Source: a virus
Lineage: Duplodnaviria > Caudoviricetes
Reading direction: 5' to 3' (one strand)
IMG/VR virus record: IMGVR_UViG_3300030098_001117
Span: 1 to 52,873 of that record
DNA: 52,873 bases
Shown: positions 1-41,359 of the stretch, in pieces
Numbering within the stretch: position 1 is the stretch's first letter
Layout of the letters: each line of letters starts with the position of its first letter
Made by a program: the position numbers and the translations under genes
The notes under the pieces: generated by a model
The model's input: the letters and a program-made list of their open reading frames with translations, nothing else
What the model was told of the DNA's origin: nothing
The model's database searches: none

Positions 1-1081
1 GCTGATAGCTTATTCTTCCATGTGCTGTAGTGCCATCTGCATTGTTAAAAGCTAAATTTCCTTGATGTGTTGAACCTGATTGTATCGTTATTCCGTCATT
101 ATCATCACCATCACCTACTACTAATTTTTGTGCGAATACATAACCTGTTTGTGAGGTTTGACCTAAATGTACATCGCCCGCAGTATCCAAATATATACCT
201 GTAGTAGCTGCCCTGATTAGGATTGGATTATAAGCACTTGCACCATCGTCATATCCTATGATGTCTATTTGTCCATTTGTAACACTAGATATAACAACAC
301 CTTCACCTTGATGTCCTTCAAAAGAAGCTACATTAGCATCTGCTGAATTTACATGAAGTGTCCTTGCAGGACTCGCAGTTCCTATACCTATTCTGTCTGT
401 ACTAGCATCTACATAAAGAAGATTCTCCTCATTGTCCCCTTCTACTTGAAAATCTTGATTAATACCTTCTTGGTTAAAATGAATCTTTGAAGTATTAAAA
501 GCAGCTCTTGTGCTATTACCGACTACAATTCTAAAGTCATCTGCATTAGCAAATCTTAAATAGGTATCAGTATCGCCTGCGTGAATTATTTTTGAAGGTA
601 TTGTTAAATCACTACCTACTGATAACGTACTGTCCAACGTAGTAGCACCAGTTACATCAAAAGTTCCTACTATGTCTATGTTGTTGGCTAATTTTGCAGA
701 GGTTACTGCTAGATCAGCTAATAAGGCAGTGGATATATTGCCATCAGCAATCTTTGCTGTGGTTACGTTGTCATCTACTATGGAAGCTGTTACTACTGCA
801 CTTGCAGCTAATTGGTCTGCTCCTACGGCATCATCTGCTATTTTTGCCTGTGTTACTTGGTCATTTCCTATATGGGCAGTATCAATAGAACCATCTACAT
901 AGTGTTCTGAATCTATAGCATCATCGGCTATTTTTGCACCAGTTACAGCATCTGCGTTTATCTTTGCTGTGGTTACCGAGTTGCTAGCAAGTTCTGTGGC
1001 TACTATTGCACCATCAGCTATCTTGTCTGCTGTTATAGAACCATCTTCTATCTGTTCGCTTTTTACTGTTGTGTTAGCCAT
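1..1081 (-). CDS. Fibre/adhesin-like virion protein, N-terminal part (runs off the window start)
   Basis: Not in the ORF track. Manual translation from ATG at 1081 gives MANTTVKSEQIEDGSITADKIADGAIVATELASNSVTTAKINADAVTGAKIADDAIDSEH... with (I/V)TxAKIAD repeats and an IGIGTASP motif shared with the neighbouring fibre genes; the frame is open to position 1. Confidence 0.8.
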   Translation of the reverse strand, partial: MANTTVKSEQIEDGSITADKIADGAIVATELASNSVTTAKINADAVTGAKIADDAIDSEHYVDGSIDTAHIGNDQVTQAKIADDAVGADQLAASAVVTASIVDDNVTTAKIADGNISTALLADLAVTSAKLANNIDIVGTFDVTGATTLDSTLSVGSDLTIPSKIIHAGDTDTYLRFANADDFRIVVGNSTRAAFNTSKIHFNQEGINQDFQVEGDNEENLLYVDASTDRIGIGTASPARTLHVNSADANVASFEGHQGEGVVISSVTNGQIDIIGYDDGASAYNPILIRAATTGIYLDTAGDVHLGQTSQTGYVFAQKLVVGDGDDNDGITIQSGSTHQGNLAFNNADGTTAHGRISYQ

Positions 1082-10100: not shown

Positions 10101-11216
10101 TGTGGTGTTGCTTCCGTCTGAAACTGTGATTGATGAATTGGCTAGTTTGGCATTTGCTATAGAGCCTGCCAACATTGCATTAGTTATAACCCCTGAACCT
10201 ATAACTAAGTCAACTGTTCCGTCTCCATCCTCGTATGTAGCTGCAATACCTGTTTCTGTATTGCTTGAGAACATAGCACCTACTATATCCTGTACTCTTT
10301 CAGCGTTTACAGTTACGGCTCCTGAAGAAACAGTAAAGTCCGTGCTATCAAATGATGCTACACCTTTATTGCTACTGGTAGCTTCTTCTGCTGCTATGGT
10401 TATCGTATTAGAAGTGGCAGAAGTATCTATACCTTCTCCACCTGCAACAGTTAGAGTTTCGCTGTCTAAATCTATAGCTATTGTTCCACTATCCGTAGTG
10501 GCATCTAAATCTTGTGCTGTAACTTGTGCATCTACATAGGCTTTAATGGATTGCTGTGTAGCCAGTTTAGTAGCACTATCTGAGGATAAATCATCTTCAT
10601 CTAATACTGCTGAACCTGAAACACCTGTATTGAATACTGGTGAGGTTAATGTTTTGTTCGTTAATGTCTGTGAGCCAGTTAATGTGGCTACTGTGCTATC
10701 TATTGCAAATGTAACTGCATTTCCACTTCCTGTAGTATCTATTCCAGTTCCACCTGTAAATGTTAATGCTTCTGAATCTAGGTCTATGGATAAAGCACCA
10801 CCTGAATCTCCTTGAAAGTCTAAGTCTTGTGCCGTTACTTGTGCATCAACGTAAGCCTTAATGCTTTGTTGTGTGGCTAATTTGGTATTGCTGTTAGTTC
10901 CTAAGTTATCTTCATCTAGGACACCAGTTACTGATGCTCCACCTGCAGTAAAGGTCAATCCAACTAATTTAGTGGTTAGAGAACTGGCATTACTGGAAGT
11001 TGTTGCCAACCATCTTGTATTAGCGTGGTCATATATTACTGTTGAGCCTATATCACTAGAACCTACGGATTCGTCTGCTGTAGTTGCTCCTAATAATGTT
11101 TGTGCTCCTGCTAAACCTTGTGTTCCGACTGTTATTACGCTGATAGCGTCTGCGTCAGTAACAGTTACTTTATTTATAGTATTGGTATTAGTTGTTGATA
11201 CCTTTGATATAGCCAT
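4107..11216 (-). CDS. Giant fibre protein (2369 aa) with C-terminal intramolecular chaperone (peptidase S74-like)
   Basis: Long internal repeats; C-terminal SDERLKENI...IGFIAQD...[16 protein letters not shown] coiled coil typical of auto-cleaving S74 chaperones. Confidence 0.85.
9590..10925 (-). repeat. Tandem internal duplications in the giant fibre gene
   Basis: [28 protein letters not shown] occurs twice (about 10818-10925 and 10503-10610). AE(E/D)[54 protein letters not shown] occurs twice, plus a partial third copy. Confidence 0.85.
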
Positions 11217-18720: not shown

Positions 18721-19758
18721 ATGAATAACTTACCAACCATAACAGACAGAACATTTGGAATAGAAATGGAGTTTGAAGGTGCTGATATTAGAGAAGTAGC
18801 CAGAACTCTTAACCAAGTTGTTGAATGTCATTTTGAAGGATACACGCACACAGTATTAGATTACTGGAAAATAGTTACAGATGGTAGCTTGCCTAATTAT
18901 GATACTTGCGGTGAGATTGTTAGTCCTATACTTAAAGGACAAGAAGGAATAGAACAACTTGCTAAAGTATGTGAAGCCTTAGACACAATAGAAGGAATTC
19001 ATGTTACTAGAAGATGTGGATTACACATTCATTTAGGAGTTGAAGATTTAACTGTCGGACAGATACAGACTGTATATGAGAGATACGCAGACTACGAAAG
19101 TCAAATAGACCTAGTAATGCCAAGAAGCAGAAGAAGAAGCAATGCTCATTGGTGCGGAAGTATTACTGGCAGTAAGAATAGAGTTAAAAGAGCAACTACT
19201 AAAAGACGTCTTGCAGGAAGTGCAGGAACTAGATATTTAAAAGTTAATTTAGAATCTTTGGCTAGATACGGAACTATAGAGTTCAGACAACATAGCGGAA
19301 CTTTAAATTTCACAAAGATTGTTAACTGGTTAAGTTTCTTGATGGCTTTTGTTGAAAAGAGTGTTGCTTTAACACCTGCTAACAGAAGAAGAAGTGTCAG
19401 TAAGAACAGACCTTACAATTTAACTAGAACTCTTATAGAGAACAATGGGTATGAAATTGAATACTCTAGACAATACAATGGTTGGATAGTTACAGGTGAT
19501 GGAATTTCTACTGCCCTTGAGGTCTTATTATTTAATTGTGATTTGAATACCTTTTATGATACTGCAAGAGAAAACAGTTTAGATAGGGTTTCATTAGTTG
19601 CATGGTTGGAAAGAAAAGGATTAAACATAACCTTTGTTGATTTTGAAAACATAACAACAGAAGAAGAAACAGTTTCTGAAACGGATAGCGGATGGCTTGA
19701 TGGTGTAGACCTAAAAGTCAAAAGTTACTTTGAAGAAAGGGAAGATGAACTTAACTAA
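18721..19758 (+). CDS. Putative amidoligase (COOH-NH2 ligase, Amidoligase_2-like)
   Basis: RTFGIEMEF, WKIVTDGSL, EIVSPIL, CGLHIH, RYLKVN, GTIEFRQHSGT. Confidence 0.88.
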   Translation: MNNLPTITDRTFGIEMEFEGADIREVARTLNQVVECHFEGYTHTVLDYWKIVTDGSLPNYDTCGEIVSPILKGQEGIEQLAKVCEALDTIEGIHVTRRCGLHIHLGVEDLTVGQIQTVYERYADYESQIDLVMPRSRRRSNAHWCGSITGSKNRVKRATTKRRLAGSAGTRYLKVNLESLARYGTIEFRQHSGTLNFTKIVNWLSFLMAFVEKSVALTPANRRRSVSKNRPYNLTRTLIENNGYEIEYSRQYNGWIVTGDGISTALEVLLFNCDLNTFYDTARENSLDRVSLVAWLERKGLNITFVDFENITTEEETVSETDSGWLDGVDLKVKSYFEEREDELN

Positions 19759-19774
19759 ATATAAGGAGAAAAAA

Positions 19775-20269
19775 ATGAAATATAAATCTTACCTGTATGG
19801 TGCTTATGGAAGCAATCTGAATGTGAACCAAATGAAAATGAGGTGTCCTAATGCTGAACCAGTCGGTAGCTTAATGCTGCATGGTTGGGAACTTAAATTC
19901 AGAGGGGTTGCTGACGTAGAAGAAGTAGATAATGCCAAAGTTCCACTCGGTTTGTGGAGAATTACGCAGACCTGTGAATCTGCATTAGATACTTATGAAG
20001 GTTACCCTCACCTTTACACCAAAAAATTATGCACTGTAAAAGGCATAGAAGAAAAATTGGGTAGTGAAGAAGTTATGCTCTATATAATGAACAGCAAGGG
20101 AATTACTCCCCCTAGTATGCCTTATCTAGATTGCATAATAAAAGGCTACAAAGACTTTGGACTTGATGAAGACTATCTCAAGTTTGCATTGAAAGATGCT
20201 TACGCAAGAGAAACATTTGTGGATTCATATACTCCCAAGCCAAAGAGAAACTTTAGATTAATTAAATAA
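19775..20269 (+). CDS. Gamma-glutamylcyclotransferase (AIG2-like)
   Basis: YGAYGSNLN..QM..RCP, LDTYEGYP, YIMN, P...YL..I..GY. Start at ATG 19775 after AAGGAG. Confidence 0.9.
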   Translation: MKYKSYLYGAYGSNLNVNQMKMRCPNAEPVGSLMLHGWELKFRGVADVEEVDNAKVPLGLWRITQTCESALDTYEGYPHLYTKKLCTVKGIEEKLGSEEVMLYIMNSKGITPPSMPYLDCIIKGYKDFGLDEDYLKFALKDAYARETFVDSYTPKPKRNFRLIK

Positions 20270-20424: not shown

Positions 20425-21234
20425 CTAGTTTTTAGATTTACACAATTCTAAAAGCATTTCTGCAGGCTTATCTCCGAGCACCGATTTGACCACATCTGCT
20501 TCGTCTCCACTAAAGACTAGATTCAGTCTATAGAAGTTGGCTGCTTGAACTGCCATGCTTCTTTCTTCTTCTGTTTTTGCTTCTGCTACTTTTCTTTCAA
20601 CTTCTCTTTGAGCATTTAACGCTTCTGGAGTAAGAGCCTTAATCATAGTTCCATCTGCGGTTTTGTGTTCAGTGCCTGTTACACTATCTTCTGATGTGTC
20701 GCTATCAGTAGGAATCCAAGCCGTTCCAAAATCTTCATCAGCCATAGCTTCAGGAGCAGGTATATCTTCAATCATTCTTTGAAGTTCTAAGTCGTCCATC
20801 ATCAGACTGTCTTGTGCCCAATCTAAGGCTCCTAGTTTTTCTAAGTCCCTCAAAACTTCAGATGTTAATTCAATATCTTCAGAACCCCTTGCTCTGTTGT
20901 GCCTTAGAGTAGCTATTCTTGCTTGTTCATAAGTCATCGGAGTAACTACTATAGGTATTTCTGTATACCCTAGAGCCTTTGAACATCTCCATCTGTGTTC
21001 ACCATCTACTATTCTGAACATACTTTCATCATCTTCGTGCTTTACACACACTATAGGCTGAGTAAATCCATCTTCAGTCATTGACCTTTTTAGCAATTCA
21101 AATTCATCATCTGATTGCCTGTTGGGATTATAGGTATTAGGTACAATTTTATCGTGAGTAACGTATTGAATATTTAAAGCCTCTAATACTTTATTCTTCT
21201 TTTCTACTTCTGCCTTACCTTTAGTTCTAGCCAT
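20425..21234 (-). CDS. ParB/sulfiredoxin-domain protein (IbrB-like)
   Basis: PNTYNPN, GFTQPIV, IVDGEHRW, ATLRHNRARGS. Confidence 0.85.
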   Translation of the reverse strand: MARTKGKAEVEKKNKVLEALNIQYVTHDKIVPNTYNPNRQSDDEFELLKRSMTEDGFTQPIVCVKHEDDESMFRIVDGEHRWRCSKALGYTEIPIVVTPMTYEQARIATLRHNRARGSEDIELTSEVLRDLEKLGALDWAQDSLMMDDLELQRMIEDIPAPEAMADEDFGTAWIPTDSDTSEDSVTGTEHKTADGTMIKALTPEALNAQREVERKVAEAKTEEERSMAVQAANFYRLNLVFSGDEADVVKSVLGDKPAEMLLELCKSKN

Positions 21235-21258
21235 GTTTTCTCCTGTTATTTTGATTAT

Positions 21259-22395
21259 TTAAAAAGTTGGTTTTCCGCCCCAAGTACCAGAACCTTCTCT
21301 AAAGTATTCTGGCTCCATATAGGGAAGCGTTCCTTGTTTCAAAGAAAAGGGGTCTCCGTTGTATAGGTTTATTGCTAATTTTTTCCATGAACCATTCGGA
21401 TTTGCTCTTATAGAATTTACCTGCGGAAAATCCATAGCAGAACCGTTTTGTTTGTTGAACTTTCTTAGTTCAGATTCCATAACTTTCACTGCCCTTTCTG
21501 CTATCCAATCTGGTGCTTCTTCTATACATTCTCTTTTAAAACATTCTTCCCACGTTTCTCCTGACTTTCTTATAGGTTGACATGATATTTTTCCGAATTG
21601 AGCAGCGGTCCTAATGCCGTCTAATCTATGACATACTGAATCAAACCATCTTGGAAATGCTTTCTGACCTAATTGTAAATCAGGGATTCCTGCAGTCGTC
21701 ATTGTTAAAGGTGCAATTCTGAGTTTATTTTTTGACCTTCCATGTTTTACCATTACATCGTAAGCATGATTGTAGTCCCATTTAAAATCTCCTATTGCTT
21801 TCCAAATATCTCCATCTGTCCAATCATATATTGGTCTTAGATACTTTACTCCTATTTCATTGCCTTTAGTTATGTGACCTTTGCTTGAAAACAACCCCAT
21901 ACGTCTATTAGGACTCTCTTGTACTCTCAGTCCGATACAAGCCATTAGGTCCTTGCCTTCTTCAACAGGAAACCTTTCTGGTGTAACTAACGCAGTTATA
22001 TTCTGTTCTTCAATCTTATACGCATAAGGTGGTGGCTTCCTTACCCAATCATCAGGGTTAACTGCTTCATCAAAAATCCACCAATAAGGTAAATTTCTAT
22101 TGAATACATTTATAACAGGTTGACCTGCGTAAACATGATGCATATTTACTTCAGGTCTTTGGGCAACTCTATCTAAGTATTCGTATGTATTCGGAAACAA
22201 TATTTCTTCATCACGATGTATAACATTTATTGGAAGCTTACCTGCTGCATCAGCAGCCATTATCGCAAGTTCCATGCAGACCGTGCTGTCTTTGCCTCCG
22301 CTTTGGGAAATTACTATCGTGTGCCCTTGCTCGTAAACTTCTTGGAGTCTATTTAAAGCTGCATCAAATACGTTTAGGTTTAAATTTAGCTTCAT
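21259..22395 (-). CDS. PAPS-reductase/PP-loop family protein (IbrA-like)
   Basis: NVFDAALNRL, PP-loop SGGKDS, IGLRVQESPNR, PIYDWTDGDIW, YNHAYDVM. Confidence 0.85.
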   Translation of the reverse strand: MKLNLNLNVFDAALNRLQEVYEQGHTIVISQSGGKDSTVCMELAIMAADAAGKLPINVIHRDEEILFPNTYEYLDRVAQRPEVNMHHVYAGQPVINVFNRNLPYWWIFDEAVNPDDWVRKPPPYAYKIEEQNITALVTPERFPVEEGKDLMACIGLRVQESPNRRMGLFSSKGHITKGNEIGVKYLRPIYDWTDGDIWKAIGDFKWDYNHAYDVMVKHGRSKNKLRIAPLTMTTAGIPDLQLGQKAFPRWFDSVCHRLDGIRTAAQFGKISCQPIRKSGETWEECFKRECIEEAPDWIAERAVKVMESELRKFNKQNGSAMDFPQVNSIRANPNGSWKKLAINLYNGDPFSLKQGTLPYMEPEYFREGSGTWGGKPTF

Positions 22396-23075
22396 AACTG
22401 TAATATCAATAAATAGTATTTACACTTAGAAAGGTTGTGAATGTTTTTGTTCATACTTCTGTATATATCTTTTAATGTCTCACTTTTATTGTCATATTCT
22501 ATACTAGAAAGACCCAATGTGTACGACCAATCATAATCTATATTATCTAATAAGTCTTGTATTTGTTTATAAGTAAACCTGTAAGGGTCAATAGTCTCTC
22601 CCCCTTCATGGCTGACAACTTCATAATCAACAGAACTATTTAAAAAAGTTACATATAGGAATCCACCTTTCTTTATATAATCAAAAAGTTTTATAAACCC
22701 TTCTTCCCCACAATAATCCGTTATAGAAAAAAGGCTTGTAACTAAATCATATTTATTTTCATCAGAATAACTCATAAAATCTTTATGAAGGAATTTATAC
22801 TGTTTGTGTTTTGCCTTTGCTTGTGAAAGCATCTTTTCACTTATATCTAAACCTAAATAGTTATAGGGTTTAATTTCTTCTCTGAACAAATCTAAAAACA
22901 ACCCTGTTCCTGCCCCACAATCTAATACAGTCTTATTTTGTGCATAAGCTGCAGGAGGCAAACAATCAATTAGAACCTTGTTTTCAGCTTTTATTATTTT
23001 GTGATTTTCTTTACTGTTATATATATCGTCATATCTAGAAGCAGCCGCATCATATAATTCTTGTATGTTTTTCAA
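22392..23075 (-). CDS. Class I SAM-dependent methyltransferase
   Basis: YDAAASRYD, motif I VLDCGAGTG, GLDISEKML, YDLVTSLF, KKGG. Confidence 0.88.
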   Translation of the reverse strand: MKNIQELYDAAASRYDDIYNSKENHKIIKAENKVLIDCLPPAAYAQNKTVLDCGAGTGLFLDLFREEIKPYNYLGLDISEKMLSQAKAKHKQYKFLHKDFMSYSDENKYDLVTSLFSITDYCGEEGFIKLFDYIKKGGFLYVTFLNSSVDYEVVSHEGGETIDPYRFTYKQIQDLLDNIDYDWSYTLGLSSIEYDNKSETLKDIYRSMNKNIHNLSKCKYYLLILQL

Positions 23076-32712: not shown

Positions 32713-32946
32713 CTACCCAGTATTCTCTCCACTTTTCTCACTTTGATACTTGATGTTCAACCCTGCTAGGGTACAAAGCCGATTTTTTTCATCAAGTCCT
32801 TTTGGAGTAATAGCAAAGCCTTCTTCTTCTTTGGCTACAAAGCCGTCGTTGACTACTTCTTCTAAATGTTCTTGTGGTGTTTCTTCTTTGAACATTACTG
32901 ACAGTATTGCCCCAAGTCTTTTGTTCTGTTTCTTTGACAGTGCCAT
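32713..32946 (-). CDS. Hypothetical protein, last gene of the late/lysis operon
   Basis: MALSKKQNKRLG...ITPKGLDEKNRLCTLAGL; TGATG coupling to the lysozyme. Confidence 0.55.
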   Translation of the reverse strand: MALSKKQNKRLGAILSVMFKEETPQEHLEEVVNDGFVAKEEEGFAITPKGLDEKNRLCTLAGLNIKYQSEKSGENTG

Positions 32947-33392
32947 CAGACAGCGTACCACTCTCCACCTTGAAACATAATAGCTTCCGCTTCTCTGCGT
33001 CTAACTAAACCATTTAATACTTCACCACCTGCTTTATTCCATCTTTTCATTTGTGCAGGAACTTCGTCATACTTACCTTCATTCAAAACTTTTAACATTG
33101 TGCTTTCTTGTAAGTTTCCTGAACCTAAGTTAAAGACCCAAGCAACCAATGCATCAAATTGACATTGCTTGAGAGGAACTTTGACCATCTTATTTATATA
33201 ATCTTCATATTCAGGCAGTTCTTCCTGTAATAAATGTTCTGCTTCATCTTGGTTAATCTTGTCGCCTTCCCTAACTCCTTTTATAGTTCCATATCCTATT
33301 GTCCAGATTCCTACGCTGTCCTGATACGCTTCTAACCTACAACCTTCAAACTTTTTAATTAACGAGATTCCTTCTTCGCTTATTATTTGCAT
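32946..33392 (-). CDS. Endolysin, phage lysozyme GH24
   Basis: EGISLIKKFEGCRLEAYQDSVGIWTIGYG (E-8x-D-5x-T triad), QFDALV..FNLG, GLVRRREAE. Start at MQIISEEG; no SAR domain. Confidence 0.95.
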   Translation of the reverse strand: MQIISEEGISLIKKFEGCRLEAYQDSVGIWTIGYGTIKGVREGDKINQDEAEHLLQEELPEYEDYINKMVKVPLKQCQFDALVAWVFNLGSGNLQESTMLKVLNEGKYDEVPAQMKRWNKAGGEVLNGLVRRREAEAIMFQGGEWYAV

Positions 33393-33393
33393 A

Positions 33394-33789
33394 TTATTCT
33401 CCCCAAGTTCCATCTTCTCGGACTTTGGCTTTCTTAGTACCACCCCAATATTCCACTGCATGACCTTCATCAATAAGCGTCTTACAAATGTCATTACCTT
33501 CTGCATCATAGGGTATTCCTAATATTCTTCCGTATTTGCCTTTTCCTAAAGATTTAACTTTAAATGTGCCTTCGCACAATTCTATTAATCTTTCTTTAGC
33601 TTTAAGACCTAATGCCTTTTCAGCTAAGTTCCTTGTTCTGCTCTCAGGGGTATCTATCCCTGCGAGCCTTACCCTTTGTTTGTGTAATTGAACATCAAAG
33701 CCTAAGTCCAACGTACAATCAAGGGTGTCCCCATCAACCACCCTGTCTAGAGTTGCTCTGTATACAAAAGCGTCAGGGGATTCACTCAT
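33394..33789 (-). CDS. Thermonuclease (SNase-like)
   Basis: RVVDGDT, RVRLAGIDTPE, GKYGRILG, LIDEGHAVEY. Confidence 0.9.
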   Translation of the reverse strand: MSESPDAFVYRATLDRVVDGDTLDCTLDLGFDVQLHKQRVRLAGIDTPESRTRNLAEKALGLKAKERLIELCEGTFKVKSLGKGKYGRILGIPYDAEGNDICKTLIDEGHAVEYWGGTKKAKVREDGTWGE

Positions 33790-33974
33790 TTCTTAGGTGC
33801 TACTTCTTTAGCCTTTCCCACGTTCAAGGCACACCAATCTAGGACTTTGTAAATCTTTCCTATGATTTGGTCGTCTTTAGGTGTTGGTGTTAAGGCACAC
33901 ACCAAAGATGCAGCCATAACAATAAAGGGAATAACTTGTGCTACTCTAACTAGCCACTCTATGATTTCTAACAT
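33786..33974 (-). CDS. Small membrane protein, holin candidate
   Basis: 62 aa with a hydrophobic N-terminal half, ALTPTPKDD...LALNVG-type pattern, AGGAGG RBS, in the lysis cassette. Confidence 0.55.
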   Translation of the reverse strand: MLEIIEWLVRVAQVIPFIVMAASLVCALTPTPKDDQIIGKIYKVLDWCALNVGKAKEVAPKK

Positions 33975-34018: not shown

Positions 34019-34393
34019 TTATTCCTTTTTTGTATCATCTTCTTCTTTATCTAGACTTCTGTAATACTTAATGATGCTTAAAATATCTTTTGTATATCTG
34101 GTTATTTCAGCCATGTCCATGCTTAGATTTTCGTATTCTTTACTGGTTAAGGAGTAATAAGCACGCTTCGGAGCATCTCCATTTTCAAGATTTTTAAGAT
34201 ATTCTTCCATTCTTTCTGGGGTCATAACCTCCCAATCAACATCAGATAAACTCATGGGATATGGTAGAGGTGGGTGATAAATAGGTGGTCTTTCAGATAT
34301 TGTTTTGACCTGCACTGGTTTTACTTGCGGTTGCATTAGAGAACAACTCGCCATAAATATACTAAGACTAATTACTGCTAGGTGCTTCATCAA
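34019..34393 (-). CDS. Outer-membrane spanin (Rz1-like lipoprotein)
   Basis: Lipobox MASC after a hydrophobic signal, Pro-rich PPIYHPPLPYP; overlaps the upstream i-spanin candidate. Confidence 0.7.
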   Translation of the reverse strand: MMKHLAVISLSIFMASCSLMQPQVKPVQVKTISERPPIYHPPLPYPMSLSDVDWEVMTPERMEEYLKNLENGDAPKRAYYSLTSKEYENLSMDMAEITRYTKDILSIIKYYRSLDKEEDDTKKE

Positions 34394-34772
34394 ACTGGTT
34401 TGGATTACTTAACTTTTCAAGAGTTGCCATGACTCTTGCTGATGCTTTATTAATTCTATTCTGTAAATCTTCTGGGTTTGCTAACGCAGATTCATCTAAA
34501 TCTAAGTTGGAAAATGTTTTTCTTAGCCTATTAACATCTTTCATGGCTTGTCTATTTTCCTCAGCGAGATTATTCATCTGCTGTTGCTGTTGTTTTGCTT
34601 GTTCTAAATGCCTTTCTATGGCTTCGTTCTGTTCTTGTATTTGTGTCTCAAGGACTATTTGATTCCCTTTCAGGGTAGCTATCTGGTCGTTTAGATAATC
34701 AATGTAATACCAAGAACTTGCTAATGTTACTAATAACAATCCGCCTAGTATTAGTGATAATTTCATTCCCAT
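34368..34772 (-). CDS. Inner-membrane spanin (Rz-like)
   Basis: N-terminal TM helix plus a long coiled coil; precedes the lipoprotein. Confidence 0.7.
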   Translation of the reverse strand: MGMKLSLILGGLLLVTLASSWYYIDYLNDQIATLKGNQIVLETQIQEQNEAIERHLEQAKQQQQQMNNLAEENRQAMKDVNRLRKTFSNLDLDESALANPEDLQNRINKASARVMATLEKLSNPNQFDEAPSSN

Positions 34773-36535
34773 GTATACACTTGTAATGGTTTTTCTTTAC
34801 CTTTGACCTTCAAAGGCTCTAATTTTTTTAAATTATAGTCACTCTTTATAGCAGTATTGTAACCAATGAGCAAATCTACTCCTGCTTCTTTAGTGCCACT
34901 TTCTAACCTTGCACCTGTATTAACTGCATCACCTATTGCCGTATAGTCAAATCTTGATTCACTGCCCATATTTCCTATCACTGCATATCCAGTATTGATG
35001 CCTATGCCTATAGCAACAGGCGGTAAATCCTTTTCAGCTAGTTCTTCACTCAGCAATTCCATATTCTTTTTTATATCTAAAGCACAATCTATAGCCTTAT
35101 TTTCATGGAAATCTTGGTCTAAAGGAGCATTGAATATAGCCATCATTGCATCCCCTATGTATTTATCCACCATCCCCCCATGAGCCTGAACTGCTTTTTG
35201 TTGAGCAGTAAGTGCTTTATTCATAATATAAGTTACATCTTGGGGATCTAATTTTTCTGACATTGAGGTAAACCCACGAACATCAGTAAATAAAAATGAT
35301 GCATAGCGAGTTTCTCCGCCTAGCTTTAACAAATTTGGATTTTTTTGTAACTCTTTTACCTGTCTTGGGTCTAGGTAATGCTCAAATTGTTTTTTAATCT
35401 GCTGTCTTAATTTGTATTGCTCTCTAAATCTCATATAGAAAGCTACAGAACCAGTTATAAATTGAGATATTAATGCCCAAGTTACATCTATTAGTAATCC
35501 TTGTTGAATAGTCCAGAAGCCAAAATAAGCCGTTGTAAGCATTAAAGATATAAATAGGGTAATACCAAGCGTAATACCAAAAACGTGCAGGAGAAGCCAC
35601 GCAAATAGCACTGAGAGGGCAAATATACCTACCTCTAGTGCTAAAGCATAGTCAGGAACATAAGGACTGTTTTCAATAAGTATAGACTCTGCTAATGCAG
35701 CCTGAATCTTATGTGGTTCCAAAAGTTGATTATTAGGAACAGCTAATTGGGGCATTATTCCTTTTGCAGTAAAACCAACAAATACAAACTTATTTTCTAC
35801 ATCCATTTCTTTGAGGTCTGTCTGCGGAGTATCTACCCACGAAACCCATTTACGACCAAGAGCATCAGTTTTCACAGGCAGTAAACCTTTTACTCTTATT
35901 TCCTCTATTCCTAATTCATTAGTTTTGATAACGTATGTATCAGCACCAGTTAATATTTTTAATACTTCAGTACCATACGCAGGGACCCAACCATCAGGAG
36001 TTCTTAGCAATAAAGGTAATCTTCTTATCAATGAATCAACTTCTACTCTAGCAACTGCTATACCTTGATTGGCGTTCTCTTTAAGTATATCTATATTTTG
36101 AATAACCCCCTGTGCATCTATACCACCTTTGTCATCACCCATAATGACAGTTCCTGTTGTCGGTGGAAAATCTCCGTTATCATTTTCAAACATTGCCAAG
36201 ATACTTGGTGCGTAAGATAAGGCTTCAGAGAATTCTGCATCTCCGCCAAATCTATCTGGTTGAGGAAAGGCAACTACCCAACCGACACCTATTGCTCCAC
36301 TATTTAAAATTTCTACCTGTATTTCAGCGAGCCTTTGTCTACTCAGTGGGTAGCCACCCTCTCTAGTTATATCATCTTCTGTGATATTAAGTATAGTGAA
36401 ATATCCAGAAGGCTGTTGTTCTGGAACTAATACATCAAATGTTTTTAGTTTTAAGGTTTCACGTGGAACGTTTTCAAACACTAAAGGCATACCCAATAGA
36501 ACTAAAAGAACTATTGGTATTACCCTCTTAATCAT
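34763..36535 (-). CDS. CHASE2-domain class III adenylate cyclase
   Basis: Periplasmic CHASE2 (GGYPLSRQRLA, FPQPDRFGGD..F, D..IRRLPL, VFVG.TA, H.IQA), three TM helices, and a cyclase domain FTDVRGFT / DKYIGDA / GIGINTG / GNMGS..RFDYTAIGDAVNTGARLES. Confidence 0.92.
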   Translation of the reverse strand: MIKRVIPIVLLVLLGMPLVFENVPRETLKLKTFDVLVPEQQPSGYFTILNITEDDITREGGYPLSRQRLAEIQVEILNSGAIGVGWVVAFPQPDRFGGDAEFSEALSYAPSILAMFENDNGDFPPTTGTVIMGDDKGGIDAQGVIQNIDILKENANQGIAVARVEVDSLIRRLPLLLRTPDGWVPAYGTEVLKILTGADTYVIKTNELGIEEIRVKGLLPVKTDALGRKWVSWVDTPQTDLKEMDVENKFVFVGFTAKGIMPQLAVPNNQLLEPHKIQAALAESILIENSPYVPDYALALEVGIFALSVLFAWLLLHVFGITLGITLFISLMLTTAYFGFWTIQQGLLIDVTWALISQFITGSVAFYMRFREQYKLRQQIKKQFEHYLDPRQVKELQKNPNLLKLGGETRYASFLFTDVRGFTSMSEKLDPQDVTYIMNKALTAQQKAVQAHGGMVDKYIGDAMMAIFNAPLDQDFHENKAIDCALDIKKNMELLSEELAEKDLPPVAIGIGINTGYAVIGNMGSESRFDYTAIGDAVNTGARLESGTKEAGVDLLIGYNTAIKSDYNLKKLEPLKVKGKEKPLQVYTWE

Positions 36536-37322
36536 ATTGGGTAATTGTTAGAGTTTTATTGCAATTTGTTACGCAGTTATAGGTAGCTGTAAAAGATTTA
36601 TTTGTAGTTCCGCTTTGAGTTACTGATACGTTGTAATCGTCTTTATAGAAATTTAGCCTAGCAGTATGGTCTCCTGAGCCTGATTGATTTATAGACGCTG
36701 TTCCATCATCTGCGTCTGAATACCAAAACACATCTGCATCATGGTCTCCACTTCCTGATTGAGTTATGGTCGTTGTATTTCCATCAGCGTAGTTATAGTT
36801 GTATATATAAGCATTATGATGCCCTGTTCCAGATTGAGTTATAGTGCTAGTAGCATCATCTCCAAATGCCAATATCTTTGCGTACTTGTTGTTTCCAGTT
36901 TGCGATATTGAATAGGTAGTATCATCTCCTGCCATTAATATCTCTCCATGATTATCGTCTCCATTTTGAGTTATAGTTGCAGTATTGTCGTCTTGGTCTA
37001 AATCTAAATATCCGTAATTGTCATCACCTGTCTGGGTTATGGTGAAGTTATTATCTGTGTGATTAGACCATTGAGAATAGGCTTTAGTCGTATTTCCTGA
37101 GCCTGTAGTGGTTAAATTGATAGTTGCCCTAGTACAAGTATGGGTTTGGTAGACTCCGTTGCTTAAACCACAATAGACAGTGGCATTGTTTGTATATCCC
37201 ACCTGTTTAATATTGATAACAGAATCATTACCTTTCTGCTGTATGACAGTTGAATTGTTTCCTGCAAAAAGGGGAAAACTAATCAGACTGATTAATAATA
37301 ATCGTACCATCACCTCCACCAT
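36528..37322 (-). CDS. Curlin-repeat (CsgA/CsgB-like) secreted protein
   Basis: Signal peptide (..FPLFA) and roughly 22-25 aa repeats such as NxxTITQxGxxN/H. The start may be ATG 37310. Confidence 0.78.
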   Translation of the reverse strand: MVEVMVRLLLISLISFPLFAGNNSTVIQQKGNDSVINIKQVGYTNNATVYCGLSNGVYQTHTCTRATINLTTTGSGNTTKAYSQWSNHTDNNFTITQTGDDNYGYLDLDQDDNTATITQNGDDNHGEILMAGDDTTYSISQTGNNKYAKILAFGDDATSTITQSGTGHHNAYIYNYNYADGNTTTITQSGSGDHDADVFWYSDADDGTASINQSGSGDHTARLNFYKDDYNVSVTQSGTTNKSFTATYNCVTNCNKTLTITQYD

Positions 37323-38343
37323 TTACTGTTATATTTATAAATTTTCCACCTGCTAATATTTGAATGTTATAAGCACTCCTCTTTTCTATCTGTAAGTCTA
37401 TCGTATTTTCCACACTTCTGAAAAAATTTAGCATCTCACCTTCTACAAAACTATACACTTGTGCCTTTGGGTCATAACCTGCAATGATGCCCTCTAAGGT
37501 AACATCACCTATTTTTGAGACTTCATCTTCGCCTTCTATAAAAGCCAATAGGTCTATTAAGAAATCTACGTTTAATAAATCTATGGATAACCTGTCTATT
37601 TCAAGTTCATCTTCTTCTAATTCATCTTCATCAAAGTTTTCTTCTAAAAAGTCTACATCCAGAACATTAGTGCTTCTGGTGTTTTGTTCATCAACGGCTT
37701 CTTGTACTTCATCTGGTGGATTAACTATTAAAAGGTTATTAATGAAGTTTAAGGTCATATTTACTAAAGTGACTGGTTTGGTAGGGGGTGCTTCAGAAAC
37801 GCTTACCATAGTCGCCTGAAAGGGCTTATTTAGGATTTCTATACCTGCTGCAGTCTCTACTGTTATTTCCCCTGAACTTGTACCATCTTCATTCGGAAGC
37901 AATATCACCAGTGATCGCCCTATTTCGTCTACAGTCGTAGTAAAATCTGTACCACGAATAGATATGTCTGCACTTGGCGTCTTAATAGATATATTTTTTT
38001 TATCTATCTTTCCGAGTTTTCCAGTTATAAATCTTGCAGTACCACTAGCCATATTGAGAGCCAGTCTTGATTTACTTGGATTTGGGTCATAGATGTATTC
38101 ATCTACAACTATTTTAGAATGTTCTGTTAACTTAATAACTGAATCATCTAAAAACTGTATAGCCATACGACCATTGCCAGTACGCACATCATCATTACTG
38201 AGTATGCCTAAAGACAATTCAGCTAATAGTTTATCCCCATTGTTACTGCGTAAGACTTCTCCATTCCCACGCAGTTCAGAAATAGAACCTATATCTGCAT
38301 ATAAAGAACTAGATACTAACCCTATTAGCAACCAGTAGTGCAT
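37279..38343 (-). CDS. Secreted FecR-domain protein
   Basis: Signal peptide (SLYA/D), DDVRTGNG...F.DDS.IKLTEHS....DEYIYDP, GTARF..G, IKTPSA.ISIRGTDF, then a long acidic segment. Confidence 0.85.
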   Translation of the reverse strand: MHYWLLIGLVSSSLYADIGSISELRGNGEVLRSNNGDKLLAELSLGILSNDDVRTGNGRMAIQFLDDSVIKLTEHSKIVVDEYIYDPNPSKSRLALNMASGTARFITGKLGKIDKKNISIKTPSADISIRGTDFTTTVDEIGRSLVILLPNEDGTSSGEITVETAAGIEILNKPFQATMVSVSEAPPTKPVTLVNMTLNFINNLLIVNPPDEVQEAVDEQNTRSTNVLDVDFLEENFDEDELEEDELEIDRLSIDLLNVDFLIDLLAFIEGEDEVSKIGDVTLEGIIAGYDPKAQVYSFVEGEMLNFFRSVENTIDLQIEKRSAYNIQILAGGKFINITVNGGGDGTIIINQSD

Positions 38344-39011
38344 TGGTCAATGTTTATCGTACCGCTTGTTGAAGCTGCGACAATATTGATTGTGTCCGTT
38401 ACACCTGATGCACTTGTTGTTTGGTCAATGTCTATATCGTTACTATCCCCAGTAATACTGGCAGTTATACTTTTATCGTCTGTTCCAATTTGAGTCACGT
38501 CTATATCGTTGCTGTTGCCGTCAATTGTCCAATTATTGACTGCTCCTATAACCTCACTTCTGATGTTTAAATCATTAGAGTTACCAGTTATAACTGCATC
38601 AAAGTTTCCGCCTGTAGCAGCACTTGAACTACCTTGTAACCAAGTCAAAATGTTTTGGTTACCTGTTGCAGAATAGTCAAAGTCAGAACTCGTTACAGCA
38701 CCACTACCTCCTGCCGTGATTGTACTCGTATTGGAATCACCAATTTGGTACATAGTCCAACTAGAACTTGCAGCTTGACTGATAGCATTAGCCAAAGTAT
38801 TAGTATTACCTTGTTGCTTTATATCAGCAGTTATTGAAGCACCTGCAAAAGTAGACCTAGTGTTTGAAGTACCCACTTTATTTGTGTTTCCAATTTGATC
38901 AATCGTTAGGTTAAATGCCCCACCACCTGATTGAGTGATGTAAATATCATTGTCACCTGACCACAGATTAAACGTAGCTAGTATTAATAAAAGTTGTAAT
39001 AAATATTTCAT
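38325..39011 (-). CDS. Curlin-repeat (CsgB/CsgA-like) secreted protein
   Basis: Signal peptide, DNDIYITQSG, IDQIGNTN, IKQQGNTN, YQIGDSN, ITGNSN, IDGNSN, ITGDSN repeats. Confidence 0.75.
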   Translation of the reverse strand: MKYLLQLLLILATFNLWSGDNDIYITQSGGGAFNLTIDQIGNTNKVGTSNTRSTFAGASITADIKQQGNTNTLANAISQAASSSWTMYQIGDSNTSTITAGGSGAVTSSDFDYSATGNQNILTWLQGSSSAATGGNFDAVITGNSNDLNIRSEVIGAVNNWTIDGNSNDIDVTQIGTDDKSITASITGDSNDIDIDQTTSASGVTDTINIVAASTSGTINIDQCTTGC

Positions 39012-39856
39012 TATCCTCTTACTCCATCTATAGGGTCTGGAATCTCAATATAATTGTAATCCCATAACTCCTTTTGTAAGCCTTCCATTACTAACTCGTA
39101 GACTGCTGTTTCTATGGCAGACCTAACTGCATACCCTGTGGCTTCCGTCTGTGTATAGCCTGTTTCTATTTCTACTAATTCGGTATCACCTACTTCTGTA
39201 AATCTAAAAACATCTCTGCTTACACCTGCACTCAGTATTGTCTTGCTTACTGTTACATTCAATATAACTTCGCCAGTCTGTACGAGAACTGCCCTCATGG
39301 ACACAGTTACATCATCTATTCGGTATTGGTTTGTATTCCCAATGCCCAAATACCTTGCACCATTTCCACCAGTCCTTATATCAGACTCATAGGAAACTAT
39401 GCCACCTTCCAAGATTATACCTGCATATAGAATAGGTTTCAGTTTATTAGCACCTTTTCCATCATAGGTTTCCCTTGTAGATTTAATTAATTGTCTTTCT
39501 TTCGTTAAATTATTGAGTCCTTTTCTTTCTACTACTACAAACCACTCTCCATTTCCTACACTTTTTAAGGCTTGTATTAAATAGTTTTCTGCTCCCTGTG
39601 TTACAGCAGTTGAGAATAATGCCATTTTATTAGAGGGTTTACGCTGACCAGTTAAATCATCAAAGCTATAAACAGCTATAACTGCCTTTTGATTTGGTTT
39701 AGGTATATCTAATAATTTTTGTAAAGTTATTCTTTCTACCCTAGCATCTTCAGGGCAAGTTAATAGATCTATACAATTGTTATGTCCAACAGGTGCAAAA
39801 CTGGCACACCCTGTAATCATAAAACTGATTACTATATACCACAGTCTGCTGTACAT
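39011..39856 (-). CDS. csgG: Curli secretion channel lipoprotein CsgG
   Basis: Lipobox ITGC, AVYSFDDLTGQRKP, FSTAVTQGA, WFVVVERKGLNNLTKERQLI, EGGIVSYE, TGGNGARYLGIG, YRIDDVTVSMRAV..QTGEV, KTILS. Confidence 0.95.
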   Translation of the reverse strand: MYSRLWYIVISFMITGCASFAPVGHNNCIDLLTCPEDARVERITLQKLLDIPKPNQKAVIAVYSFDDLTGQRKPSNKMALFSTAVTQGAENYLIQALKSVGNGEWFVVVERKGLNNLTKERQLIKSTRETYDGKGANKLKPILYAGIILEGGIVSYESDIRTGGNGARYLGIGNTNQYRIDDVTVSMRAVLVQTGEVILNVTVSKTILSAGVSRDVFRFTEVGDTELVEIETGYTQTEATGYAVRSAIETAVYELVMEGLQKELWDYNYIEIPDPIDGVRG

Positions 39857-40332
39857 ATCCCAAATATTCCTATCGGTATTACAATTTCTGTTATAGAGCC
39901 ATCTTCTGCTATAACTGTTAAGGTAATGTATTCTCCATCATTAGAGAATGTTATCGTATTACCTTCTAATTCTATTGAACCCCCAGTTCCTCCATCTTCA
40001 TTAAATAACATATCTGATATGTCTCTGGATAGATTACTAAATATACGGCTTTGTAAATTGTTTAAGAATTTGTTGAGTGTGCTGTTTTCTATCTCTCTTT
40101 CTATTTCTTCTAATTCTGACTGTATCTTTTCAGCCAGTTCATCTCGTCTCTTTCTTTCCTGTTCATCAATGGTTAAATAATGAGCAGATGTTCCTGCTCC
40201 ACTGAAACTAGGATTTTTAAATTCGTGAACTATTGGTGAAGCATTAACATTAATAGCAACCACACTTAGTATTAAAACTAGACCTATTATGACTGCAACT
40301 TCGTTTCTATTTAATTTAGGTTTTTTTGACAT
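39832..40332 (-). CDS. csgF: Curli assembly protein CsgF
   Basis: Signal peptide then IVHEFKNPSFSG (CsgF F.NP.FGG-like N-terminal plug), F.NNLQSRI...LS, G.I.LEGNTI; upstream of csgG. Start at MSKKPK (AGGAG RBS). Confidence 0.85.
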   Translation of the reverse strand: MSKKPKLNRNEVAVIIGLVLILSVVAINVNASPIVHEFKNPSFSGAGTSAHYLTIDEQERKRRDELAEKIQSELEEIEREIENSTLNKFLNNLQSRIFSNLSRDISDMLFNEDGGTGGSIELEGNTITFSNDGEYITLTVIAEDGSITEIVIPIGIFGICTADCGI

Positions 40333-40407
40333 TAAGTTTCTCCTAACCAAATAGCAATATACATAACCAGTAAAGTTATAAGCATAGATGATAAAACCAA
40401 TATCTCG

Positions 40408-40680
40408 TCAGGTCTTTGGTTTGCTTTCCTCTGTACCCTTTTGTTTTTGTTCATCTTCTTTCAACTCCAAGACAGTGTTCACTTTCTGTTGTAATCGTAT
40501 CATATCTTGATCTAAAAGCCGTAATTGGTCGGTCAAACGAATAATCGTGGTTTTCATTTGATCTACTGCAGGGTCTATTTTGTTGGTTATCGTTTGCCAA
40601 ACAAAGTAGACGAAATAGCCAAGTCCAACCACCATGACTGTTGAGAAACCAAACTTGTCTATTAAAGCAACTATATCCAT
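40408..40680 (-). CDS. Single-TM coiled-coil membrane protein
   Basis: IDKFGFSTVMVVGLGYFVYFVW TM plus a coiled coil containing DMIR. Confidence 0.65.
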   Translation of the reverse strand: MDIVALIDKFGFSTVMVVGLGYFVYFVWQTITNKIDPAVDQMKTTIIRLTDQLRLLDQDMIRLQQKVNTVLELKEDEQKQKGTEESKPKT

Positions 40681-40973
40681 TAATCTCTGCGAGCATCTAT
40701 CTTCCCATCTTCTACAAAGTTTTCTGCTCTCGCTATCCTGTCTAGGTCTGGTGCTAAATTTAAAGCACTAGATACACTTGTATCAATGCGAATCATGTCG
40801 TTATTCATTATTGATGCTCTTGTTATGAGCATGGTTGTTATTCCCTGTACTGTTTTAATTTCAGCCACCAGTTGTCCCATAAGTTGCTTCATAATAAGAA
40901 ATATAAAATATCCCATTACTAGACCACCTGCTATGGGCAAACCAACATCTTCAATTAAGTTAAATACTTCCAC
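40680..40973 (-). CDS. Single-TM coiled-coil membrane protein (paralogue of 40408-40680)
   Basis: GTG start; IEDVGLPIAGGLVMGYFIFLIM TM plus DMIR. Confidence 0.65.
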   Translation of the reverse strand: MEVFNLIEDVGLPIAGGLVMGYFIFLIMKQLMGQLVAEIKTVQGITTMLITRASIMNNDMIRIDTSVSSALNLAPDLDRIARAENFVEDGKIDARRD

Positions 40974-41359
40974 TATTTATCTTCACCTTTGAAACTTTTA
41001 GATGCTCCTGAAGTGCCTGCGTATAAGCCAAACCAAGCTGCACCTGCTCCAACAATTACTGATATTAAGCCTGACTGTTCAAACGTAGGATTAGGTAAAT
41101 CCATAAACCAAACCACAGTGTAATAAAGCAATACTATATATACAGTTAAAAAGGCTCTTGGAAATATTCTCCAAGAATCTACTGCTTGTGCTAAAAATAT
41201 CCATTTCTGATGTGGGTTTCTCATACCTTCATCTTCCAACTCTCTGATTCTATCCTTTAAATCAGCCTTTTCCTGAAGCAGTTCCATGAATTTATTGAGG
41301 TCAATTTCCACCTCATTCCTATCCATGTCTCCACCAAATCTACCTGAACTTTCATTCAT
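40973..41359 (-). CDS. Two-TM membrane protein with N-terminal coiled coil (holin candidate)
   Basis: DSWRIFPRAFL..TM..PTFEQSGLISVIVGAGAAWFGLY. Confidence 0.6.
   Translation of the reverse strand: MNESSGRFGGDMDRNEVEIDLNKFMELLQEKADLKDRIRELEDEGMRNPHQKWIFLAQAVDSWRIFPRAFLTVYIVLLYYTVVWFMDLPNPTFEQSGLISVIVGAGAAWFGLYAGTSGASKSFKGEDK

Follow-up and report, generated by a model that had tools for sequence, protein, structure and literature searches.

We analyzed the viral DNA record IMGVR_UViG_3300030098_001117 (Duplodnaviria; Caudoviricetes), whose whole 52,873-nucleotide (nt) stretch is called the window here. The minus strand of the window carries a block of overlapping genes for curli-type secretion proteins, a FecR-fold protein and a receptor adenylate cyclase. 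This block is a known viral type VIII secretion (curli) module, and each of its genes has an ortholog in the modules of Pelagibacter phage HTVC008M and Methylophilales phage Melnitz. The module itself is published, and what is new here is its siphovirus-type carrier and its place within the lysis cassette. Our preferred reading, with a probability of roughly 0.6, is that a siphovirus phage carries a curli module that provides fibers and a FecR/CHASE2 sensor, which works from periplasm to cytoplasm through cyclic AMP (cAMP), and that the module is expressed late. The best-supported account of the gene set is that two pre-existing units were joined in a late phage operon: a minimal type VIII secretion system (T8SS) with two curlins, and a FecR/CHASE2-cyclase pair.

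Gene content of the curli block

The genes of the block, together with the gene upstream of it, are listed below, with protein lengths in amino acids (aa). Signal peptides, the lipobox, hydrophobic segments and topology were judged by eye from the sequence.

40973..41359, minus strand: multi-transmembrane (TM) protein upstream of the block, 128 aa; phrog_10198, unknown function
40680..40973, minus strand: t97, single-pass small membrane protein of 97 aa with a helical tail; first gene of the conserved block
40408..40680, minus strand: t90, small membrane protein of 90 aa, paralogous to t97
39832..40350, minus strand: CsgF-like protein, 172 aa from TTG; in-frame ATG at 40332
39011..39856, minus strand: CsgG outer-membrane channel lipoprotein, 281 aa
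38325..39011, minus strand: c1, secreted curlin-repeat protein, 228 aa
37279..38343, minus strand: secreted FecR-fold protein, 354 aa
36528..37322, minus strand: c2, secreted curlin-repeat protein, 264 aa
34763..36535, minus strand: receptor adenylate cyclase, 590 aa, with one TM segment, a periplasmic CHASE2 domain, three TM segments and a class III cyclase domain

The six genes from csgF to the cyclase (34763-40350, minus strand) are co-directional open reading frames (ORFs), each of which overlaps the next, by 25, 1, 19, 44 and 8 nt in that order. The 3' end of the cyclase gene overlaps the Rz-like spanin gene (34368-34772) by 10 nt. An earlier reading of the window, made from the letters and ORFs without database searches (the sequence-only reading), had described these six overlapping genes, and the ORF list gives the lengths it had stated; the end that it had placed at 40332 is the in-frame ATG of the CsgF-like ORF. 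The identities it had proposed were borne out by profile searches, in which all six proteins scored above the Pfam curated cut-offs (25.8 bits for CsgF, 20.8 for CsgG, 20.7 for Curlin_rpt, 24 for FecR and 26.3 for CHASE2). It had also seen no csgD, csgE or csgC. In agreement with this, the CsgE, CsgC and GerE (CsgD-type) profiles, as well as cNMP_binding and HATPase_c, had no match at E<=1 in the whole 52.9-kb record.

The conserved block consists of eight genes, as t97 and t90 precede csgF. The t97 protein has an ortholog in a small ORF of HTVC008M (L002:7487-7768, 45% identity by tblastn). The t90 protein aligns with t97 and is 38% identical to the HTVC008M ORF at L002:7206-7487. No Pfam family was matched by t97, and t90 gave only insignificant Pfam matches. 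In the ESM Atlas, the t97 family is viral-only and falls in clusters without a Pfam family; clusters of YvrJ and of the BhlA holin scored below 0.9 and are leads only. The gene for the 128-aa protein, a possible holin by its hydrophobic segments, is found upstream of t97 in some relatives too.

The block lies at the end of a long late operon, where its 5' side is formed by a tail fiber gene, two unknown genes and three small membrane proteins. Its guanine-plus-cytosine (GC) content of 0.35-0.38 matches the flanks. Since the genes overlap one another, the spanin gene overlaps the cyclase stop, and promoter-like and terminator-like sites in the record showed no excess over shuffled sequence, late co-expression of the block genes is suggested. 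In an RNA library from one sample, a few short contigs matched portions of the FecR, c1 and SNase genes with full identity; DNA may be present in that library, and these contigs are a weak hint of expression.

Relation to published phage modules

In Pelagibacter phage HTVC008M, these six genes recur in unchanged order, and two of them are annotated only as hypothetical. In BLASTP against HTVC008M, the cyclase (E 2e-100, 33% identity) and the FecR-fold protein (E 9e-72, 37% identity) aligned over their full length, and CsgG (E 4e-82, 50% identity), CsgF (E 2e-36, 37% identity), c1 (E 4e-15) and c2 (E 6e-12) were likewise matched along their length. Pairwise identities of the block proteins to those of HTVC008M range from 27% to 50%. 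The HTVC008M labels are 'hypothetical protein' for the FecR ortholog, 'curlin-associated protein' for the c1 counterpart and 'adenylate/guanylyl cyclase' for the cyclase. The GenBank record of Melnitz (MZ577097) lists, in order, CsgF, CsgG, curlin repeat, FecR domain, curlin repeat protein and adenylate/guanylate cyclase. Within the deposited phage collection, this FecR protein occurs only in HTVC008M (two records) and in four Melnitz records.

Three articles describe such modules, and statements about them here refer to the portions of their text that were compared. The csgF/csgG cluster was first reported from pelagimyophages, with 'sibling capture' as the proposed origin (Zaragoza-Solas et al. 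2020; PMC7029224). For the genes of Methylophilales phage Melnitz, Buchholz et al. (2022; PMC9004378) considered that they might act as a pore or in the timing of lysis. The full set was found in nine HTVC023P-type Podoviridae genomes and in Myoviridae pelagiphages (Wittmers et al. 2022; PMC9599517). The order given there is one or two 'histidine kinases' (HK), CsgF, CsgG, CsgA/B, FecR, often a second CsgA/B, and adenylate cyclase; the module has no CsgE, was present at all 65 GOV2.0 stations and had matches in metatranscriptomes. In another article, PMC7198788, the sole virus for which curli genes are mentioned is a T4-like one.

The statement in the sequence-only reading that csgF and csgG occur in some marine myophages was correct (PMC7029224, PMC9599517). 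Its supposition that no set of this kind had been described was not, because the pelagiphages of PMC9599517 and the Melnitz record hold the same block. The part of the novelty that stands is the siphovirus-type carrier and the naming of CHASE2, both of which are absent from the published texts as compared, while the gene set and its order were already known. The word CHASE2 occurs 0 times in the compared text of PMC9599517, where 'Siphoviridae' is used solely for other genes. A literature search found no description of a siphovirus carrier, although the figures, Fig. S3 and Data Set S1 of PMC9599517, which lie outside the text compared, could list some.

Like the window, the pelagiphage and Melnitz modules have one or two small upstream proteins followed by CsgF, CsgG, curlin, FecR, curlin and cyclase, with no CsgE. 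The published carriers are HTVC023P-type Podoviridae and T4-like Myoviridae with SAR11 or OM43 hosts, whereas the carrier of the window is siphovirus-type. The upstream genes of PMC9599517 are called 'HK', whereas t90 and t97 are proteins of 90-97 aa without a kinase domain. Judged by position, the 'HK' genes are probably the counterparts of t90 and t97.

The carrier phage

CheckV put the record at 100% completeness. PHROG matches identified an HK97-type major head protein, protease, portal and large terminase (TerL) among the head genes, and a tape measure, distal tail protein (Dit), tail protein and J-like fiber among the tail genes; further matches were to a major tail protein, a tail terminator, and neck and adaptor proteins. 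These results agree with the phage context assumed earlier, that of an HK97-type siphovirus. The carrier is a siphovirus-type HK97 phage as judged by its gene set, because the tape measure, major tail protein, tail terminator, Dit and J-like fiber are all present; no search was aimed at a sheath gene. The closest database relatives of the capsid and portal proteins are less than 50% identical, and there were no pelagiphages among the best database matches listed for these two proteins. A transfer RNA scan of the record found none and therefore gave no clue to the host. Marine metagenome runs from several studies contain the stretch or close relatives of it, and DNA runs cover the whole stretch with relatives.

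Linkage and integrity of the block

To map the block in other viruses, IMG/VR was scanned with a CsgG alignment, which found 249 relatives. The best 80 of these and one earlier locus gave 81 viral loci, which were mapped by tblastn with the proteins of the window and of HTVC008M. Because this is the best-scoring third of the CsgG relatives, the sample leans toward the kin of the query; counts below are over informative loci, i.e., those with enough flanking sequence.

CsgF lay beside csgG in 76/76 loci, and t90 or t97 was found upstream of csgF in 66/66. The remaining members were present in 65 of 69 loci (c1), 61 of 61 (FecR), 53 of 56 (c2) and 48 of 51 (cyclase), with the cyclase found in all 35 loci that had at least 8 kb of downstream sequence. 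FecR and the cyclase do co-occur with the csg genes in relatives, and this synteny strongly supports their tight coupling to csgF and csgG; the lack of co-occurrence that the sequence-only reading had named as a refutation was not observed. Three loci (L057, L063 and L064) have no cyclase, and a lysozyme gene follows c2 in them.

The block travels as an eight-gene unit between unrelated phage backbones. The capsid and tail-tube proteins of the window were found in only one of five module-carrying viral records. A viral record of 63.6 kb (97% complete) has module proteins that are 81-96% identical to those of the window.

A search of bacterial metagenome-assembled genomes (MAGs) with the FecR alignment gave 14 loci, all 14 with the phage-type block, in bins of at least eight unrelated taxa. 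Contig PBPT01000002.1 (60,834 bp), binned as Neomarinimicrobiota, has the block split across both of its ends (L085, L094), and probably represents an entire circular phage genome that was binned with bacteria. Contigs of 121 kb and 142 kb from a Sphingobacteriales MAG (L091, L093) also carry the block. The spread over at least eight unrelated taxa and the block running across both ends of the 60.8-kb contig fit phage contigs that were binned with bacteria.

The 14 MAG loci could be misread as a bacterial origin of the block, in which case the window would be a chimeric assembly or a host fragment misjoined to a phage contig; no other support for such an artefact was found. Its probability is negligible, and for practical purposes it is refuted. 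The same junctions, in the order tail fiber, block, spanins and lysozyme, recur on independent IMG/VR contigs (e.g., L004, L006, L007, L026 and L042), and the composition of the block equals that of its flanks. Moreover, two cultured phages carry the block, the MAG bins belong to unrelated taxa, and relatives in DNA runs from other studies span the entire stretch. The concern that the block might be a chimeric insert was thus removed by the recurring junctions and the matching GC.

Position within the lysis cassette

Directly downstream of the cyclase are the following genes.

34368-34772, minus strand: Rz-like spanin (PHROG)
34019-34393, minus strand: Rz1-like spanin (PHROG)
33786-33974, minus strand: 62-aa membrane protein, directly after the Rz1-like spanin
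33394-33789, minus strand: SNase-like nuclease (Pfam SNase), overlapping the lysozyme gene
32946-33509, minus strand: lysozyme (Pfam Phage_lysozyme, PHROG endolysin)

Lysis genes were counted at the 44 loci where the block's 3' terminus was known and was followed by 2 kb of sequence or more. At 27 of the 44, a gene homologous to one of the window's genes for spanin, lysozyme, SNase and the 62-aa protein started within 2 kb past the block, often overlapping the cyclase stop. At several loci, the SNase or 62-aa protein gene was upstream of the block instead. The block is inserted inside the lysis cassette in this clade, because the SNase and 62-aa protein genes precede it in some loci. The 17 loci without a window-type lysis neighbor are mostly distant (CsgG identity of 54% or less) and include myovirus-like copies. 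As a separate observation, many relatives keep the SNase-like gene either in the lysis cassette or ahead of the curli block. The position in the window differs from that in HTVC008M and Melnitz, in which the block is beside replication genes (single-stranded DNA-binding protein, thyX), not lysis genes.

This synteny supports a lysis-related role better than the argument made for Melnitz. One possible explanation of the block, which extends the idea of Buchholz et al. for Melnitz, is a lysis-timing or outer-membrane device in which the CsgG/CsgF pore or a sensor of envelope state tunes the action of holin, spanin and lysozyme, and in which fibers are optional. Such a device would suit a block that has small membrane proteins on one side and Rz/Rz1, the 62-aa protein, SNase and lysozyme directly on the other, whose last gene is overlapped by a spanin gene, and which keeps a lysis gene within 2 kb, or SNase or the 62-aa protein upstream, at so many loci. 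It would also suit the lysozyme gene that follows c2 where the cyclase is missing, and timing of lysis was a speculation of PMC9004378. We nevertheless regard this explanation as unlikely. The HTVC008M and Melnitz blocks adjoin replication genes, and 17 of the 44 loci have no window-type lysis gene nearby, with the limit that diverged ones would escape detection. The ends of late operons are common insertion sites for morons, so position is weak evidence, and a pore role leaves the two conserved curlins unexplained.

Type VIII secretion components

CsgF matched Pfam CsgF (PF10614) at 1.3e-14 and 54.9 bits over profile positions 6-132 of 132, and there was no sequence match to solved CsgF chains at E<=1. 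CsgG matched Pfam CsgG (PF03783) at 2.4e-53 and 181 bits, and its residues 44-267 matched the E. coli CsgG chains 3x2r/4uv3/6l7a (E 4e-47). A lipobox, I-T-G-C, was seen by eye at residues 14-17 of CsgG, with G16 and C17 invariant among four aligned phage CsgG proteins. CsgF, c1, the FecR-fold protein and c2 have hydrophobic N-terminal leaders. We take the constriction residues of E. coli CsgG to be Tyr51, Asn55 and Phe56. At the aligned positions the phage CsgG has Arg, Leu and Phe, so that only the Phe is retained, and this loop is conserved among the four phage proteins.

Curlin_rpt (PF07012) matched c1 in two stretches (33.1 bits) and c2 in four (54.2 bits). The two proteins are homologous to one another by hhalign (probability 99.4%, E 1e-21). 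In NCBIfam the block proteins showed agreement at the family level, and none reached an E. coli equivalog cut-off; for example, c2 scored 61.6 bits (7.6e-17) against CsgA, compared to an equivalog cut-off of 160. Since the CsgA and CsgB equivalog cut-offs are not reached, c1 and c2 are judged, by profile score, not to be CsgA or CsgB orthologs. An AlphaFold2 (AF2) model of c2 (pLDDT 83.3, pTM 0.84) has 20 regularly spaced strands in a regular two-strand repeat. Foldseek of this model against the PDB returned nothing at E<=1e-3, only weak beta-helix rows, with no solved curlin chain among them.

With the curli systems of E. coli and Salmonella, the block has in common the CsgG and CsgF homologs and secreted curlin-repeat proteins predicted to form strand-turn-strand stacks. 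Compared to csgBAC-csgDEFG, it is without CsgE, CsgC and CsgD, and its curlins, at 228-264 aa, have about twice the repeats of the CsgA model of about 150 positions. It also adds the FecR-fold protein, the cyclase and the small membrane proteins to what E. coli has, and the residues of the constriction loop differ.

The lack of CsgE in the record brings up another idea, raised in PMC7029224 and PMC9599517, that an ungated CsgG pore admits nutrients or cofactors, with the curlins and FecR as accessories. We consider an uptake channel very improbable, because it gives no reason for two curlins, CsgF, the FecR-fold protein and the cyclase to be kept so strictly, and an outer-membrane pore alone leaves the inner membrane uncrossed.

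The FecR-fold protein and a shared C-terminal strand

The FecR-fold protein matched Pfam FecR with 47.7 bits. It has a cleavable-looking leader and a FecR domain from about residue 19, with no domain upstream. An AF2 model built on a 15-sequence alignment (pLDDT 73.7) has a confident, beta-rich N-domain at about residues 19-180, an acidic linker at residues 224-273 with pLDDT below 50, and a small beta C-domain at residues 275-352 that ends in I-x-I-x-Q. Structures that resemble the N-domain are the cell-surface signaling domain of PupR (6ovm_R; Z 15.6 and rmsd 2.4 for 137 residues) and an anti-sigma factor from Bacteroidales (4m0h; Z 13.1). The first half of the N-domain also resembles a cell surface anchoring domain (5ix9; Z 6.6, 74/76 residues, 24% identity), which anchors a giant adhesin in the periplasm.

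The periplasmic domain fold is thus common to this protein and the FecR/PupR anti-sigma regulators (6ovk/6ovm). Unlike those regulators, the window protein has neither a cytoplasmic anti-sigma domain nor a membrane anchor and is not a member of the family, and no sigma factor or TonB-dependent transducer is visible near its gene. Because it has no cytoplasmic anti-sigma part, we classify it from its domain makeup as a FecR-domain protein, not a FecR regulator.

In 15 diverse FecR-fold sequences, I348, I350 and Q352 are invariant. The same motif, Φ-x-Φ-x-Q, also closes c2, and in c1 it is found a few residues from the end. The motif was counted in every ORF of the viral and MAG loci, using distinct C-termini. 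Within the last eight residues it was present in 33/33 FecR and 32/35 c2 C-termini, compared to 33/1162 other ORFs and 0 for the cyclase, CsgF, CsgG and t97. For c1, the motif was in the last eight residues in 5/33 and in the last 11 in 30/33. As this strand is common to the FecR-fold protein and the curlins, the FecR-fold protein is probably tied physically to the fiber or the export route. The shared strand is the sole sequence-level hint of such a tie.

The CHASE2 adenylate cyclase

The cyclase matched CHASE2 (PF05226) over residues 16-313 (71.5 bits) and Guanylate_cyc (PF00211) over residues 412-583 (68.9 bits), with hydrophobic segments at about 5-20 and 296-370. It matched the P. aeruginosa cyclase CyaB (3r5g) at E 2e-30 and aligned with cyanobacterial cyclases too. 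Residues D418, K458, D462, R543 and E545 are invariant in 15 phage cyclases. The conserved cyclase Asn is replaced by Ser in 3/15, and the window has Thr at the second substrate position. The roles that we assume for cyclase residues are those of a metal-binding Asp pair, an adenine-specifying substrate Lys, and a transition-state Asn and catalytic Arg. With this catalytic set complete, the adenylate cyclase looks intact. Since the record encodes no cNMP-binding protein, cAMP, if made, must act on a host protein target.

Two groups of relatives differ in their cyclases. Those of L061, L072 and L083 have an additional C-terminal extension of about 70 aa, Ser at the conserved Asn and Asp at the second substrate position. 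In L015 and L018-L020, the cyclase is only 55% identical to that of the window, and FecR and c2 are 86-90% identical, which makes the cyclase the most divergent part; judging from these identities, the cyclase allele seems to have been exchanged by recombination with its position kept.

Complex prediction with CHASE2 (residues 22-295) and the FecR N-domain (residues 17-215) gave a score of 0.00 in both runs, which were made without controls, and is not used as evidence.

FecR and CHASE2 pairs in bacteria

Bacteria that have no curli genes also possess the FecR/CHASE2 pair, and in them the FecR-like domain is often the head of a giant adhesin-like protein. We searched 151 genomes of one bacterial class, the class of a block-carrying MAG, with CHASE2 and phage FecR profiles. 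CHASE2 was found in 67/151 genomes and matches to the phage FecR profile in 58/151. Among the 148 CHASE2 matches listed, 28 had a FecR-like match within 3 kb and 31 had one within 5 kb, compared to a chance expectation of about 0.5, a crude figure that assumes a mean genome of 3.3 Mb. Of 40 CHASE2 loci that were fetched, a local hidden Markov model scan detected FecR-like ORFs in 10 and a CsgG-like ORF in 0/40. The figure of 10 is too low, since ORFs that extended beyond the fetched sequence were left out, and the counts within 3 kb and 5 kb are the better measure.

Many of the bacterial FecR-like matches are at the start of very long open frames. Four FecR-like neighbors were chosen for their length, and all four had Pfam FecR; two of them (1903-2107 aa) also had Ig-like, cadherin-like and laminin-G domains. 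At one such locus, a 729-aa CHASE2 cyclase comes directly after the FecR-headed gene. A further locus, G059:C1:518401-528280, has three tandem ORFs of about 970 aa with near-identical FecR-like domains upstream of one CHASE2 cyclase.

Pairs of this kind are also found in the literature. The Burkholderia 'BiofilmReg' operon consists of a response regulator (RR), a LysM-FecR protein and a CHASE2-kinase, and the factors recognized by CHASE2 domains are described as not known (PMC5192318). In S. meliloti, the genes are clr-cyaD1-smc02177, and smc02177, which encodes a FecR-domain protein, is a cAMP-Clr target with the same mutant phenotype as the cyclases (PMC5498481). Both pairs are like that of the window in that a gene for a secreted FecR-domain protein is beside a gene for a CHASE2 receptor, and the output of S. 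meliloti cyaD1, like that of the window, is a class III cyclase. At the 40 loci, csgG was absent from the neighborhood of the bacterial pairs, in contrast to the window, where the pair is inside a csg block. Also, the bacterial FecR-like domain often heads a protein of 900-4000 aa, whereas the phage version is followed by a short acidic linker and a C-domain of about 80 aa. Taken together, a functional link between FecR and CHASE2 is supported, and an order of events between them is not.

The S. meliloti example, in which the gene neighboring the cyclase is a cAMP-Clr target, also bears on a different explanation that places the cyclase upstream: its cAMP would reprogram CRP-type regulation of the host or drive the secretion genes, with FecR providing an iron-related or regulatory input, a suggestion of PMC9599517, where regulatory roles are discussed. 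In its favor, the catalytic set is intact and conserved, and as the phage itself encodes no cNMP-binding protein, a target of cAMP would have to be a host protein. On the other hand, the block genes overlap within one late operon that has no internal promoter signal above chance, which makes cAMP-dependent transcription of the block unlikely. The FecR-fold protein, with neither anti-sigma domain nor anchor, cannot act like the FecR of ferric citrate uptake, and nothing connects it with iron. We therefore give this host take-over a low probability.

Proposed mechanism and its significance

In the reading that we prefer, with fibers and a cAMP sensor, Sec-exported parts would assemble a CsgG-CsgF channel in the outer membrane of the host late in infection. 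Through it, c1 and c2 would be exported and stack as beta-solenoid fibers. The FecR-fold protein and the CHASE2 cyclase would form a sensor pair that reaches from periplasm to cytoplasm and sets cAMP in the infected cell. If FecR is tied to the fiber or to export through Φ-x-Φ-x-Q, the state of the fiber or envelope would be coupled to the cyclase, and the cAMP would then act on a host protein. Candidate gains for the infected cell are aggregation, superinfection exclusion and timing of lysis.

Both the function of the module and the direction of signaling, which in the sequence-only reading runs from the surface fiber through FecR and CHASE2 to cAMP, are inferred. Several points weigh against the preferred reading. 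Melnitz-infected cells did not clump (PMC9004378). The T8SS part can stand alone, because the cyclase is missing from three loci. Since Arg and Leu replace two of the three constriction residues, the phage channel may handle curlins unlike that of E. coli. The bacterial enrichment was obtained with a phage-derived profile, from cross-tabulated listed coordinates and with an assumed genome size. A simple order in which FecR senses and CHASE2 relays is disfavored, because smc02177 is a cAMP-Clr target and is dispensable for perceiving the known plant signal (PMC5498481). By hhalign, the FecR protein had no significant similarity to c1 or c2 (E 0.22 and 0.03, probability below 2%). The modeled C-domain of FecR is a small sandwich, not a solenoid, with weak FHA-like rows (VIA-align, Z of 3.5 or less).

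Homology of the FecR C-terminal domain to curlins had been considered. It was dropped after the hhalign result, and the claim was cut to the five-residue motif.

A more specific version, which we consider distinctly doubtful, is that the FecR-fold protein is a trans-envelope tether that turns contact on a surface fiber into cAMP. Its modeled N-domain would stay in the periplasm at the CsgG channel, where it would touch CHASE2, while the acidic linker of about 50 residues would run through the pore and Φ-x-Φ-x-Q would dock on the curlin fiber. If this were true, pulling or loading of the fiber, by contact between cells or by adsorption of further phage, would result in cAMP. Because the block is inside the lysis cassette, that cAMP could adjust lysis timing, as a contact-sensing analog of lysis inhibition. 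The giant FecR-headed proteins and CHASE2 cyclases of bacteria would then work alike, and CHASE2 would gain a long-missing class of input.

The module is abundant in ocean viromes and equips infected cells with a secretion system that known hosts lack, and it is now also found in a long-tailed phage lineage. The link of FecR-like proteins with CHASE2 in bacteria suggests a general and testable input for CHASE2. Together, the shared C-terminal strand and the association of FecR heads with CHASE2 are concrete leads for experiments.

Other features of the record

Several other genes of the window were of note. Between the head and neck genes, a 2369-aa protein (4107-11216, minus strand) has a C-terminal Peptidase_S74 (endosialidase chaperone) domain and DUF4183. 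It is followed by a 760-aa protein (1823-4105, minus strand) and then by a tail-fiber-like ORF (2-1081, minus strand) that extends past the start of the window. This set of three is unusually large for the fibers of a 53-kb phage. The record is probably circularly permuted.

On the strand opposite to the structural genes, an amidoligase-like gene (phrog_2443) is followed by a gene like AIG2/gamma-glutamyl-cyclotransferase (18721-20269, plus strand). Beside the primase/helicase, a protein with a ParB N-terminal domain, a phosphoadenosine phosphosulfate (PAPS)-reductase-like protein (phrog_2302) and an S-adenosylmethionine (SAM) methyltransferase are encoded in a row (20425-23075, minus strand). 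This row looks like a DNA-modification set.

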